From sequence record PZ738962.1: DNA of 64,000 nucleotides. One strand, given 5' to 3'. Shown one piece after another: positions 57,188 to 62,928 of this stretch. A program made the position numbers and the translations under genes. The stretch is from a phage. The notes beneath the pieces are model-generated. The model worked only from the letters and a program-made list of their open reading frames with translations. It was not told the origin of the DNA and searched no databases. Position 1 is the stretch's first letter, and each line of letters opens with the position of its first letter.

Positions 57188-58420
57188 TTATACTGCCATT
57201 TGAGCGGTGATTGCTGGATGGCTTTGATAGTTGTGAATTTTAAAGTCTTTCGGAGTCTTTGTCAATACCTCATCTAAAGATTTAAATTCCGGCAACTCAA
57301 TCGTTGGTTTATCAAACGGAACACGGCTTAACTGTTCCATAACTTGATCAAAATGGTTTTTGTAAATGTGAGTATCTCCACCAGAGAAAATCAGTTCTCC
57401 TACCTCAAGATCACACATTTTCGCTATGATGTGAGTTAACAGCGCATAGCTGGCGACGTTAAAGGGCAAGCCTAAAAAGCTGTCTACGCTTCGCTGAAAC
57501 CACATACAAGACAGTTTACCTTCATTGACGTAGAATTGCACGAAAGGATGACATACACCTAATACAGCATTATGTGTTCCTTGTACGTTCCATGAGTCAA
57601 TGATGATACGTCGATCCGTTGGATTGTTTTTAATTTGTTCAATCACGTTTTGTAACTGGTCTTCCCAAATCTTCGGTCGATAGACATATTCTTCATCGTC
57701 TTTAGTGCTCGATGTGTCTACGTCCATACTAGCAAAGATCGTGGTATCTGGCGCTAAAATATCCCCGCCCAGATAATCACTATCAAGCAGATAACCGAAA
57801 TAACCATCATCTACCCATTCCTGGAATCCCCACAAGCAATATGCATCATTAACAAAATTAGATTGAGTCTTCCAGTGGTCTGCTACTAAGAATTGATTAT
57901 ATTCAGAATCAAACTCTTCATAACGCATACCACGCCAGATAGCACATAAACGGTCTTCTGTTTCATTGGTTGGCGTAAAGTCTTCTACCCACGGGTGCTT
58001 AAATGTATGTGCATATTTGCTCTTAACGCGCTTAATTTTGATTTCACCGTGTGGATGAATCGGTTTGCGTCGCCATGCCATACCATACATATTGCCGACA
58101 TTATAACCATTGAATCGCAAAGGATTCTTTTCTTTCATATCAAGACAGTTGCCGCGCCAAATGTCGAAGGCTTCTTCGTCAAACTTACCGCGTGTAATTT
58201 CCTGTAAGCGACGGCGGTCAAGTGATCCCTCCATAAACCATAGCAATTCGCCAATTACAGAGGCTGTAGCCATCTTTTTAGTGGTCAGTAATGGGAAACC
58301 CTTGCTTAAATCAATTCGCATCTCTGCGCCGAATTTAGATAGCGTACCTACCCCAGTTCGGTCTTCACGAGGCCATCCATTATCAAGAACATCACGCAAT
58401 AGTTTCAAATATTCTTTCAT
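57188..58420 (-). CDS. td: thymidylate synthase with a large internal insertion
   Basis: 410 aa; FPLLTTKK, YGMAWRR, DRRIII, active-site LGVCHPFVQFYV, C-terminal HPAITAQMAV; about 125-130 aa inserted between YG..WR and DRRII relative to T4 Td (286 aa). Confidence 0.8.
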   Translation of the reverse strand: MKEYLKLLRDVLDNGWPREDRTGVGTLSKFGAEMRIDLSKGFPLLTTKKMATASVIGELLWFMEGSLDRRRLQEITRGKFDEEAFDIWRGNCLDMKEKNPLRFNGYNVGNMYGMAWRRKPIHPHGEIKIKRVKSKYAHTFKHPWVEDFTPTNETEDRLCAIWRGMRYEEFDSEYNQFLVADHWKTQSNFVNDAYCLWGFQEWVDDGYFGYLLDSDYLGGDILAPDTTIFASMDVDTSSTKDDEEYVYRPKIWEDQLQNVIEQIKNNPTDRRIIIDSWNVQGTHNAVLGVCHPFVQFYVNEGKLSCMWFQRSVDSFLGLPFNVASYALLTHIIAKMCDLEVGELIFSGGDTHIYKNHFDQVMEQLSRVPFDKPTIELPEFKSLDEVLTKTPKDFKIHNYQSHPAITAQMAV

Positions 58421-59339: not shown

Positions 59340-59669
59340 TCAAATCAGTTTGAAATAGTTTTCGTTTACATTTTCTTCTGTGATTGCTGTCTTAAATTCT
59401 TGACCGTTATCCTGTGTGATGAAATAACGGTCAGAATAATCACGAAAACGTTTTAAGTGAGATACCCCAACATTAACACCATTTTCCCAAAAACGAAAGG
59501 TAATCATTTTTGGTTCATATCGATAGTCGCTTGTTAACACAGTACCATCACCGCGACGGGCTTCATAAACCGTAATACATTCACGATTAGCGGCTTTTAG
59601 GCATTCTTCAATAGTGCCGCACGAGATAATACTTACTTTTTCATCTACGATTTGTTCTACAGTCCACAT
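59340..59669 (-). CDS. hypothetical protein
   Basis: 109 aa. Confidence 0.4.
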   Translation of the reverse strand: MWTVEQIVDEKVSIISCGTIEECLKAANRECITVYEARRGDGTVLTSDYRYEPKMITFRFWENGVNVGVSHLKRFRDYSDRYFITQDNGQEFKTAITEENVNENYFKLI

Positions 59670-59700: not shown

Positions 59701-59728
59701 ATTATACATCATCTGTGTTCGGCGTCAA
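59701..59728 (-). promoter_or_regulatory. sigma70-like early promoter (TTGACG-16-TATAAT)
   Basis: read directly. Confidence 0.45.
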
Positions 59729-60054
59729 CCTTTTTGTTCCATGAAAAGCGGTGCTGTTTCTTCTTTCAGTTTAATAACTAGCGCGGAAACTTCATCAAGA
59801 AAATCTTTTTCCATATGAGCAAGCATTGATTTAGAATCTTTGATGACTTTCAAAGAATATTCACTTAGATTTCCTTTTCCTAACAATAATGCAGGATACA
59901 CACTATGTGGGATCTCTATTTCATGATATTCGCTCATAGTATAATATTTGTGAATTTTTAAATCTATATTTCTTCGTTGTACGTCCACATCAGCAATGAC
60001 ATACAGAAGTTCGATTTTATCACTTTTCTGGGAAAGGGTAGCATTCAAAAACAT
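59725..60054 (-). CDS. hypothetical protein
   Basis: 109 aa. Confidence 0.4.
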   Translation of the reverse strand: MFLNATLSQKSDKIELLYVIADVDVQRRNIDLKIHKYYTMSEYHEIEIPHSVYPALLLGKGNLSEYSLKVIKDSKSMLAHMEKDFLDEVSALVIKLKEETAPLFMEQKG

Positions 60055-60083
60055 TGTTAATCCTCCGTTGTTTCGATATGTGC

Positions 60084-60111
60084 ATTATACACTATTGCGT
60101 TACGCTGTCAA
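60084..60111 (-). promoter_or_regulatory. sigma70-like early promoter (TTGACA-16-TATAAT)
   Basis: read directly. Confidence 0.45.
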
Positions 60112-61098
60112 CTCTTTTTCAAAAGTTTTTACGATATACATGATAGTGCTCAATTCAGACGGCGCTACTGTTTCGGTCCAGCCATCCGGCATATCTTCTT
60201 TTGAGATATAGGAAGTTTTACCTTTCATCGCTTCCTTGATCTTGTTCTCTAATTCTAAGATCTTTTGACCGTCTTGTAAAGTCAATTCATAAAAGATCTC
60301 GTGGTCGAATTTAGATTTCGCTGATTGAGCTTTTATTCTATCCTTTGTGGTTCTATTTGTTATACCAAATTTAACACCAAAAAATAAACCATTATTCAAC
60401 AATTTTTGGACATAAAAAGTTCCTTGTCTTGACGGAACGTAACCATATTTCGCACATTTACTACATCTATTACCACTTTCGAATCCAGTTATTGTTGGCG
60501 TAAACTTGTGTCCGTTGCAGCATTGTAGATTTAATTTTGTTTTATTTCCTACCCAATCACCAATAAACCCACTAAACTTTATATTTTCTTTACCAAATAT
60601 TGGCTTTAATCTTTGTAAATAATCTTCTTTTGTTATTGACTTTAATTCTTTAAGTTTATCGGCTTTACATTCGGGGCAACGACAACCGCTATTAAATGTA
60701 TCAATAGTTGGTGTAAACTTATGTCCCTTGTTACATTGTAGATTAAGTCTTGTTAGTTTTCCCTTCCATTCACCAATAAATCCATTGAATGTTATATTTT
60801 CCCTGTAAAATATTGGCTTGAATCTTTGCAAATAATCTTCTTTTGTTATTTTTGTGTATGCACATTTAGGACAGCGTCGACCACTATTAAAACTGTCGAT
60901 TCTTGGGGTGAATGTGTGTCCGTTGGTGCACTGTAGATGTAATTTTGTTCTATTCCCCCTCCACTCACCAATAAACCCGTTAAATATTATACCTTCCGAT
61001 AGACAAACTTCCATGATATTTGACTGATAATCTCCCGGTAATTTTGTTCTCCCGGATTTATAAACTAGTTCAATCTCATGCGCTTGACGTACTAACAT
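60100..61098 (-). CDS. protein with three tandem zinc-ribbon-like repeats and a C-terminal GIY-YIG-like (T5orf172-type) domain
   Basis: start moved to ATG 61098 (GGAGGA Shine-Dalgarno); three repeats F(N/S)GFIG.W.G..T.L.LQC..GH.FTP.I..F.SG.RC..C; C-terminal GTFYVQ...GVKFGITNRTTKDRIKAQ. Confidence 0.5.
   Translation of the reverse strand: MLVRQAHEIELVYKSGRTKLPGDYQSNIMEVCLSEGIIFNGFIGEWRGNRTKLHLQCTNGHTFTPRIDSFNSGRRCPKCAYTKITKEDYLQRFKPIFYRENITFNGFIGEWKGKLTRLNLQCNKGHKFTPTIDTFNSGCRCPECKADKLKELKSITKEDYLQRLKPIFGKENIKFSGFIGDWVGNKTKLNLQCCNGHKFTPTITGFESGNRCSKCAKYGYVPSRQGTFYVQKLLNNGLFFGVKFGITNRTTKDRIKAQSAKSKFDHEIFYELTLQDGQKILELENKIKEAMKGKTSYISKEDMPDGWTETVAPSELSTIMYIVKTFEKELTA
60442..60990 (-). repeat. 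three tandem direct repeats of about 190-210 bp within the coding sequence
   Basis: near-identical DNA blocks (e.g. ccaataaa...ttatattttc...aatattggctt...aatctttg.aaataatcttcttttgttat) seen three times. Confidence 0.55.
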
Positions 61099-61129
61099 AT
61101 TTTTTATCCTCCATTGTTTCGATGTGTGC

Positions 61130-61157
61130 ATTATACATTACCACATAAGCATGTCAA
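61130..61157 (-). promoter_or_regulatory. sigma70-like early promoter (TTGACA-16-TATAAT)
   Basis: read directly; -10 overlaps the ORF-track start of the downstream ORF. Confidence 0.45.
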
Positions 61158-61218
61158 CATCTTTTCATAAATTTTTAGGCAATAAAAAAGCCTCCCCGAA
61201 GGAAGGCTTTAAAATTCA

Positions 61219-62187
61219 TTACATCCCTAACAGAGCGTCAAGATCATCCAGATCAGAAGCGGAGGAAGTACCGCCACCCAGGTCCAGAGATGCCATCAGG
61301 TCATCAGCGGAAGAATCTAACGCCGTGCTAGCTGCGTTAATACCAACTACAGTGCTAGCTGCGGTCATACCAGAATCGAATGCATTCATCTGTGCGTCAA
61401 AATCGTCAAGCTGGCTGTTAATCGCTGCCGCAGCACTGGAAGCCGCAGCACCAGCTACCATAGAAACGCCCATAGTTTTCTTAAATTTGGTTTCCAGTTC
61501 ATCGAACGGTTTAAACTGGCTAGGCGCTACAATCTCACTCAGATCAACCATGTTTTCCATCAGATATTTCTGATATGCTTCGTCTTCAATTTTCGGAAGC
61601 TGTGATTGCTGCATGAAACGAGAATCATCATAGTTCTGGTGTTTATCAACCTTCTTAGCTTTCAGGAGGAAGTTAGCACCAGAGAACACACAAGTTACAT
61701 CTACCGGAACTTCGCCCATATCGGTATTCACGTTCACCATTGCAACGATCTTATCATAAATTTTCTGACCGAAGCGGAATTTGAATACCTTACCTTCATT
61801 TTCTGGTGCTTGAGGATCTTTCAGTACCAGAATGTTTGCGTAGTAAGACGCTTTACGCTTAATCAGTTGCCATTCGGTTTTATCGGTATTGTACAAGTCT
61901 TTTTCGTTAATATATTTGCACACAGGGCAAGAATCAAAATCACCGTGGGTGCTGGAGCAGTTTTCCCAATACCATTTGCCATTAACTTTGAAGGAATGGT
62001 TTACCAGTTTCACAATCGGCAGACCGTCTTCTGTCTTAGACGGCAGGAAGCGAATCAGGGCTTCACCGTTACCTGCTGCATCAGTCTTAATCTTCCACTC
62101 TTTCGGATCTTCTTTGGAGAAACCGTTGCCACCTTTCAGTGCGGCCAGTTGAGCTTGCAGTTTGGAAGAATCTTGGCGTTTAAACAT
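61219..62187 (-). CDS. 32: single-stranded DNA-binding protein gp32
   Basis: ORF-track start is GTG; ATG gives MFKRQDSS...; FLPSK...VNH.FK.NGKWY.E.CSSTHGD.DSCPVC, acidic C-terminal SDLDDLD match recalled T4 gp32. Confidence 0.9.
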
Positions 62188-62223
62188 ATTCACTATTCCT
62201 TCTTTTGATTAATTTACTAGACT

Positions 62224-62251
62224 ATTATACAGATTTAAATTTACTTGTCAA
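62224..62251 (-). promoter_or_regulatory. sigma70-like promoter upstream of gene 32 (TTGACA-16-TATAAT)
   Basis: read directly. Confidence 0.45.
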
Positions 62252-62928
62252 CTATTTGTTTCGGCTTTTAATTGAGATATTTCTTTACACTCTTTAACTA
62301 CTTTAACAAATAATGCTCTTGCTTTTGCGGCGTCAATAACAAGTAGTTTCTTGTACGCCTTCATTTTAACACTATAAGTTTGCCAAATCAAGTCTTTGGC
62401 TACCTTGTCGTGTTCGTCGATTATATTTAGAAAGCTATCTAACAACATAAACGACTCAAACGATATAATCCGATTTTGCAGTAGTTTAAAGATACCGCTA
62501 GTTTCGGTTGCGGGATTATATGTAATTAGCTCTTTAAGAGTAACCCCGCGTTTCTCTGAGAAGTATACAAGACTTTTAATGTCATCGTCAAATCGTGTTG
62601 CCGCATCAGTGATTTTACCGATGTACTCCATGTAAAACCCGTATGCGTCAACATCGGTGATTTCACCTACCCATGCATCGGTATTAGCTACCAGATTGCT
62701 TAGGAATAGGAAGTATAATTCTCTTAGATTGTACTTTTCCGCTAATTTTGCGAAATAATACTTATCTCTGCGTTTATTGAATGCGGCATCAGACAACCGC
62801 ATCCTCCAATTGTATTTTACGCAATCATAACGCCCGTTCATGTGAGCTTTCATCATGCAATATAACATATACACAGATTTAGCATTAATTCGCATATCTG
62901 GATCTGGAGGAAGACGGTTTCTGATCAT
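62248..62928 (-). CDS. 59: gp59 helicase loader
   Basis: 226 aa; KSVYMLYCMMKAHMNGRYD.VKYNW.MR.SDAA..KRRDKY.F.KL.EKY and IFKLLQ..IISFE.F.LLDSFLNIID.HD match recalled T4 gp59. Confidence 0.85.
   Translation of the reverse strand: MIRNRLPPDPDMRINAKSVYMLYCMMKAHMNGRYDCVKYNWRMRLSDAAFNKRRDKYYFAKLAEKYNLRELYFLFLSNLVANTDAWVGEITDVDAYGFYMEYIGKITDAATRFDDDIKSLVYFSEKRGVTLKELITYNPATETSGIFKLLQNRIISFESFMLLDSFLNIIDEHDKVAKDLIWQTYSVKMKAYKKLLVIDAAKARALFVKVVKECKEISQLKAETNS

Follow-up and report, generated by a model that had tools for sequence, protein, structure and literature searches.

A probable homing endonuclease gene with a CapR-type zinc-finger array at a polymorphic site adjoining gene 32 of an RB49-like coliphage

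Homing endonuclease genes (HEGs) of the T5orf172 type carry CapR, DUF723 or DUF4379 zinc fingers in 87% of cases, often in repeated form, and recombination between these zinc-finger repeats has been documented; T5orf172 genes are absent from phage T4 (Barth et al., 2023, PMC10055350). According to work cited in the same paper, the activity of the T5orf172 nuclease Odn depends on a conserved glutamate (PMC10055350). Zinc-dependent, sequence-specific DNA binding has been shown for CapR only, and all four of its cysteines are needed for it (Netter et al., 2021, PMC8096241). The seg and mob genes of T4 have embedded promoters for the genes downstream of them, and the HEG-specific promoters of this phage are middle or late (Edgell et al., 2010, PMC2988022). 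The promoter-early/stem-loop (PeSL) cassette was defined in phages RB49 and phi1 (Arbiol et al., 2010, PMC2839356); that study does not discuss the locus described below, and a literature search found no paper on this locus in Krischvirus.

The present study characterised a gene in a 64,000-nt stretch of DNA (sequence record PZ738962.1, hereafter the window) from an RB49-like coliphage of the genus Krischvirus. Coordinates are those of the window, and all of its features described here lie on the minus strand. The gene most likely encodes a homing endonuclease and is mobile, its site beside gene 32 being polymorphic, a reading absent from the original prediction. On the strength of sequence, structural modelling and analogy, we consider it probable that it represents a free-standing member of the T5orf172 branch of the GIY-YIG superfamily equipped with a CapR-type zinc-finger array. 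This reading draws on which domains the protein contains, on the conservation of its catalytic positions, on the polymorphic site with its decaying copy, and on the existence of a published class of the same kind.

The open reading frame was listed as 60100..61131, and the coding sequence was set at 60100..61098 (332 aa; stop codon at 60100..60102). The ATG at 61098 is almost certainly the true start, judging from the surrounding sequence: a GGAGGAT ribosome-binding site (61106..61112) precedes it at a distance of 7 nt, homologous proteins open with MLVRQAHEI, and the ATG of the longer frame, at 61131, was discarded since it shares bases with the -10 hexamer of the promoter and would hence be absent from the transcript. 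The extent of 60100-61098 given by the original prediction, which implies the same start, is thereby borne out. The first ten or so codons of the N-terminal 21 residues (61036..61098), reading MLVRQAHEIE, are common to most alleles. Some alleles begin with MKTYF... or MKIKS... instead of MLVRQ..., and two places match the nuclease domain in FL37, Skers, AV108 and Phi1, observations that point to paralogues at another locus or with another 5' junction. A 99%-identical protein of 332 aa (P0002) is present in metagenome assemblies; the exact allele of the window occurred in no record of the phage collection, where the best match to the nuclease domain showed 84% amino acid identity. No second copy of the zinc-finger or nuclease domain was found within the 64-kb window.

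Three zinc-finger repeats follow the N-terminus, at residues 22-86 (60841..61035), 87-151 (60646..60840) and 158-222 (60433..60627). The first, with ligands C57, H61, C76 and C79, was delimited by the Pfam CapR profile, a repeat HMM and the secondary structure of the model, and the second by repeat search, Pfam, local alignment and homologues, and the third is the positional homologue of the final repeat in other alleles. The repeat search returned a three-copy family of 166 nt, with identities of 77% and 65% and spacings of 213 and 195 nt. Pairwise, the three repeats are 51-62% identical as protein and 64-68% identical as DNA, and their BLOSUM62 local scores against each other (185-222) lie far above those of shuffled sequences (23.4 +/- 4.7, maximum 47; n = 500), so the three tandem repeats of about 65 aa predicted at both levels are confirmed, together with the motifs GFIG.W.G..T.L.LQC..GH.FTP and SG.RC..C, which occur in all three copies. 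Tandem Repeats Finder reported no array in the gene, because the copies are too diverged.

The Pfam CapR homology domain (PF21817) matched the protein at 72.3 bits (E 3.6e-20; curated cut-off 24.2 bits) in three stretches corresponding to all three repeats, which also match Pfam DUF4379, a 'probable treble clef zinc finger'. Each repeat of the window protein carries the pattern Cys-x3-His ... Cys-x2-Cys (C57-x3-H61 ... C76-x2-C79 in repeat 1), that is, two ligand pairs at the distance looked for in a CapR-type finger (about 15-26 residues; CxxC...CxC in CapR itself). The family, as sampled in 210 repeats of 58 proteins, keeps three cysteines without exception, and a His or Cys stands 2-4 residues after the first of them, the ligand chemistry varying among repeats by the use of His in place of Cys. 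The full-length AlphaFold model reached a pLDDT of 90 locally and a pTM of 0.41 globally, a combination expected of independently folded beads on a string. The protein comprises three independently folded Cys3His modules (CapR homology domains) strung before a domain of GIY-YIG fold. In every repeat the model places the Cys-x2-Cys pair at the start of a short helix, and the metal site looks treble-clef-like, closer to this arrangement than to the classic two-knuckle zinc ribbon. Of the proposed zinc-ribbon-like character, zinc binding is supported by the CapR match and the invariant cysteines, and the ribbon itself has to give way to the treble-clef-like geometry of the model. The best reading of the repeats, as far as their sequence indicates, is as zinc-binding modules that would contact DNA.

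The repeats had also been taken as the product of a recent internal duplication, and this was rejected: each repeat of the window is as close or closer to the repeats of other alleles than to its own neighbours, with repeat 3 closest to the last repeats of other alleles. As the window repeats resemble those of other alleles at least as much as one another, the duplication is old and the modules have been shuffled. Repeat number, proposed as a point of comparison among related phages, ranges from one to six in 43 close homologues, with one repeat in 4 proteins, two in 4, three in 11, four in 16, five in 7 and six in 1.

The C-terminal part of the protein (residues 223-332; 60103..60432) forms a putative nuclease domain of GIY-YIG/T5orf172 type with conserved positions Y229, K243, G245, R254, E284, D305, G306, T308 and E309. 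Down to relatives at about 20% identity, Y229, K243, G245, E284, T308 and E309 are invariant, and R254 (at least 90% conserved), D305 and G306 nearly so. The segments GTFYVQ and VKFGIT.R, from which a GIY-YIG-like domain had been suspected, are present and belong to the conserved core of the domain, which was modelled at a pLDDT of 96.7 and is predicted to adopt the GIY-YIG alpha/beta fold. The secondary structure of the model puts Y229 in strand 1, R254 in helix 1 and E284 in helix 2, so that a conserved Tyr, Arg and Glu appear on the elements where the fold would have them; in GIY-YIG enzymes these places are taken by the GIY tyrosine, a catalytic arginine and a glutamate that binds metal. 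The second GIY-YIG tyrosine is replaced by lysine (K243).

Profile searches bore out the earlier expectation in part. CapR exceeded its cut-off on the protein alone; MUG113 (PF13455) scored 14.7-16.7 bits, below the Pfam cut-off of 22.3, and T5orf172 (PF10544) gave no Pfam match with the window protein alone. Both nuclease profiles were recovered among the 17 aligned family members, eight of which match MUG113 (best 3e-5) and seven T5orf172 (best 2.5e-5). The assignment to the T5orf172 branch follows from these family matches and from PHROG 681 'endonuclease', which matches the window protein at 4e-76. A tblastn search connects the nuclease to the T5 gene T5.141 (E 2e-14), noted in the T5 record as similar to an RB49 ORF. 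Searched against predicted viral structures with Foldseek, the full-length model matched 222 proteins at E<=0.001, and the named proteins among the best 50 of these are CapR-homology, T5 Orf172, GIY-YIG or 'homing endonuclease' proteins. The same model found no match in the PDB at E<=0.001, as expected for small domains that are loosely connected; a nuclease-domain profile run against PDB sequences produced only chance matches to designed repeat proteins, and an NCBIfam search gave nothing useful. A DNA-binding nuclease, as originally suggested, appears to be the best reading of this architecture from both sequence and model.

The minus-strand order around the gene is helicase loader 59 (62248..62928), gene 32 for the single-stranded DNA-binding protein (61219..62193), the endonuclease gene, ORF-B (59725..60054), ORF-A (59340..59669), frd and thymidylate synthase; ORF-B and ORF-A encode 109 aa each and have no Pfam match. 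The thymidylate synthase ORF (57188..58420) encodes 410 aa and matches a 266-position Pfam profile end to end, and therefore contains about 140 extra in-frame residues, around residues 125-250.

To compare this region among relatives, 17 Krischvirus loci, window included, were taken from the phage collection, as only three gp32 loci were found in IMG/VR. Five loci are empty, 11 hold intact alleles with 3-6 repeats and one is broken, which constitutes a presence/absence polymorphism at one intergenic site among close genomes, as looked for in a homing gene. The site is empty in MIZ6, UPWr_E1, OZ035808, KFS-EC and Makalu_003; the gene accompanies ORF-B in the window, FL37, FL04, Makalu_001 and Cognac, and replaces it in W115, GEC-3S, kaaroe, Delraymugoa, JEP8 and RB49. 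The broken locus, that of FL15 (L013, 918..2136), has a 267-aa N-terminal piece ending out of frame and a separate C-terminal fragment, apparently a decaying copy to judge from its reading frames. The junctions of every architecture lie inside repeated promoter/leader cassettes, and in the empty sites of KFS-EC and Makalu_003 an HEG-type promoter haplotype runs into the ORF-B leader, the product that excision between two promoter copies would leave. The flank haplotypes (gene 32, ORF-A/frd) form a pronounced mosaic and do not follow whether the gene is present, a single gene 32 haplotype being found with three different alleles; part of the upstream promoter haplotype co-varies with the gene in the 17-locus alignment. 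Gene 32 itself measures 313, 322 or 324 aa by ORF calls, with Makalu_001 and Cognac among the variants, and its 3' end exists in two haplotypes, reshuffled among the phages whatever the neighbouring gene content. The records named RB49 also differ from each other, NC_005066 holding a 485-aa allele that replaces ORF-B and OZ035808 being empty with ORF-B.

Sequence identity between alleles is distributed unevenly along the gene. The last 210 nt (60100..60309) form a constant arm with 93-99.5% nucleotide identity in all alleles sampled, the first 132 nt of the nuclease domain are 61-72% identical among alleles, and the zinc-finger array 34-65%. Over the first 30 nt, four of ten sampled alleles (W115, GEC-3S, Makalu_001 and Cognac) match the window gene at 87-97% identity; the lower figures for FL37, FL04, Delraymugoa and JEP8, whose starts are 1-5 codons off register, are not comparable. 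From this profile, the variable cassette ends inside the nuclease domain, and the alignments indicate that the array and the first half of the nuclease are swapped between constant ends. A further family member of 266 aa with two repeats and Krischvirus-type ends (P0025) was deposited as Bacillus atrophaeus on a 4.4-kb contig, and most likely represents coliphage DNA in that assembly.

The gene has a sigma-70 early-type promoter of its own, TTGACA-16-TATAAT (61130..61157), which agrees with the consensus at 12/12 positions and was located with the help of the 17-locus alignment, and further upstream lies the stem-loop terminator of gene 32 (61187..61210), annotated as a terminator in GEC-3S and Makalu phages. 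Together, this terminator and the adjoining promoter make up a PeSL-like cassette. Promoter, leader and ribosome-binding site are contained in a 91-nt direct repeat, of which the upstream copy lies at 61094..61184 and the downstream copy, which drives ORF-B, at 60048..60138, with 75% identity between the two. Within the 64-kb window, the 32-nt core of the repeat occurs only at the two flanks of the endonuclease gene, and a flanking promoter duplication of this kind is unique to it. The ORF-B promoter (60084..60111) likewise agrees with the consensus at 12/12 positions, and a near-consensus sigma-70 promoter precedes ORF-A (59701..59728); the stem-loop and promoter of a PeSL occur together in the upstream copy, and the copies at 60084..60111 and 59701..59728 consist of a promoter only. 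The last codons of the endonuclease gene, GAG TTG ACA GCG TAA, encode the -35 box of the ORF-B promoter, and the duplicate promoter is predicted from this arrangement to keep the next gene expressed. The three tandem cassettes share one design, the endonuclease gene and ORF-B both ending over a TTGAC[AG] -35 box, and similar 'catcgaaacaa' leaders stand behind the three promoters. A sub-threshold Rfam match to the sRNA STnc100 (61178..61252; 24.7 bits against a gathering threshold of 47, E 0.017) covers the stop codon and terminator of gene 32 and is probably a chance match to the stem-loop.

Under the homing interpretation, the zinc-finger array would bind a long, specific DNA site, and in a co-infected cell the nuclease would cut the genome of a competing phage that lacks this allele, close to or within its gene 32/ORF-B junction. 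Recombinational repair would then copy the gene in, with the 5' promoter and first codons serving as one homology arm and the constant last 210 nt with the promoter copy as the other. The flanking promoter repeats might also permit loss or gain of the gene by plain homologous recombination, and exchange of the array and first nuclease half between the constant ends would retarget the enzyme. Several observations weigh against homing: the flank haplotypes do not follow the gene, the window protein by itself falls short of the MUG113 cut-off and has no T5orf172 match, a lysine stands for the second GIY-YIG tyrosine, and the promoter looks early where the HEG-specific ones of T4 are middle or late.

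The polymorphism could alternatively have arisen with the nuclease playing no part in its own spread, the gene being passive cargo of PeSL-type promoter-cassette shuffling, which we regard as unlikely. Much of the locus fits such shuffling: three near-consensus promoters with similar leaders stand before the gene, ORF-B and ORF-A, every architecture has its junctions in these cassettes, the KFS-EC and Makalu_003 sites look like the outcome of excision between promoter copies, the flank haplotypes do not go with the gene, and PeSL-mediated insertion, deletion and mini-circles have been shown in RB49 and phi1 (PMC2839356). Recombination between promoter/leader cassettes would indeed suffice to explain every indel, with no need of a nuclease. 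Such recombination would leave unexplained, however, why a nuclease with conserved catalytic positions is fused to a DNA-binding array and why this array is hypervariable between constant ends. It is, moreover, compatible with homing rather than exclusive of it, and probably operates alongside it.

The one-to-six modules and the 34-65% nucleotide identity of the array within constant ends suggest diversifying retargeting, and would also suit a domesticated or weaponised nuclease that cuts co-infecting phages or satellites, as Odn of ICP1 does, or excludes their markers, the array varying as its targets change. Expression from an early promoter would begin at the start of infection, and both T5orf172 and CapR domains have been co-opted in phage-satellite conflict (PMC10055350, PMC8096241). 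The gene is nevertheless dispensable, as the empty sites show, and its FL15 copy is decaying, both typical of the turnover of selfish HEGs; a PADLOC search gave a chance-level match only, and a role as a weapon seems improbable to us. Least of all do we favour a sequence-specific regulator, whether a CapR-like repressor or an I-TevI-like autorepressor, with an inactive or secondary nuclease domain. CapR, built from the same zinc-finger domain, is a repressor (PMC8096241), the second GIY-YIG tyrosine has become a lysine, and early promoters that the protein could bind lie nearby; yet CapR has no nuclease domain, and the one found here is intact, is confidently modelled and shows little or no variation at its Tyr, Arg and Glu even in distant relatives, which makes a purely regulatory function very improbable.

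As a homing endonuclease gene, the window gene is an ordinary member of a class already described in other phages (Barth et al., 2023). Its recognition extends the T5orf172/CapR class to T4-like coliphages, points to a hot spot of gene turnover following gene 32 in phages collected for therapy, and supplies a functional annotation for genes listed as 'hypothetical protein' in most Krischvirus records, the RB49 allele (RB49p240) being already annotated as 'endonuclease'. The combination of constant ends with a swappable array at the population level is the only part that a specialist might pursue. With its one to six swappable modules, the allelic series could serve as a natural dataset on how CapR modules read DNA, and could also inform how homing endonucleases become retargeted. 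A more speculative thought, possible but doubtful, is that the exchange of one to six modules and half a nuclease amounts to a naturally re-targetable modular nuclease in an arms race of co-infecting phages; if so, the way in which the modules recognise DNA might be readable as a code, in principle like that of zinc-finger or TALE arrays.

Among known systems, CapR from the Vibrio cholerae satellite PLE, the namesake of PF21817, is homologous in its zinc-finger domain, which requires four metal ligands for DNA binding. CapR is, however, a single-domain repressor of 15.5 kDa without a nuclease, whereas the window protein joins three copies of the domain to one. T4 enzymes of the SegG/seg type and I-TevI share with the window protein a nuclease of the GIY-YIG superfamily combined with a modular DNA-binding part, and segG, like the window gene, is free-standing beside gene 32; genes of both kinds contain the promoter of the gene that follows. 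The notion that both occupy the same position was dropped, as segG is placed between genes 59 and 32 (PMC2988022), on the opposite side of gene 32 from the window gene. The seg enzymes also have an N-terminal nuclease and binding domains of helix-turn-helix type, whereas the order is reversed in the window protein and the binding part is a zinc-finger array; the promoter of the window gene is early-type, in contrast to the middle or late HEG promoters of T4 (PMC2988022). The PeSL elements of RB49 and phi1 (PMC2839356) resemble the window locus in that an early promoter lies beside a stem-loop and the repeats flank facultative ORFs and mark indel junctions, but only the upstream copy in the window has the stem-loop.

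Similar in protein architecture are gp174 and gp165 of the Vibrio phage ICP1 (PMC10055350), which show the same order of N-terminal CapR/DUF723/DUF4379 fingers and C-terminal T5orf172 domain. HEGs of this type often have repeated 'beads on a string', as the window gene does, and like it are free-standing beside essential genes, and their repeat number changes by recombination, as in the window family. Unlike them, the window gene resides in a T4-like Krischvirus, its first ligand pair is Cys-x3-His rather than CxxC, its nuclease half falls below the Pfam threshold on its own, and it belongs to a whole allelic series with near-identical ends. The alleles of RB49 (RB49p240, NC_005066), GEC-3S, JEP8, kaaroe, FL37 and W115 belong to the same family and occupy the same site downstream of gene 32. 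Their last 210 nt are 94-99.5% identical to those of the window gene, and the N-terminal codons of the window gene are shared by GEC-3S, JEP8, FL37 and W115, whereas the N-termini of RB49 and kaaroe differ. Between these ends, the RB49-type alleles differ from the window gene in the number (3-6) and sequence of the repeats in the array and in the first half of the nuclease.
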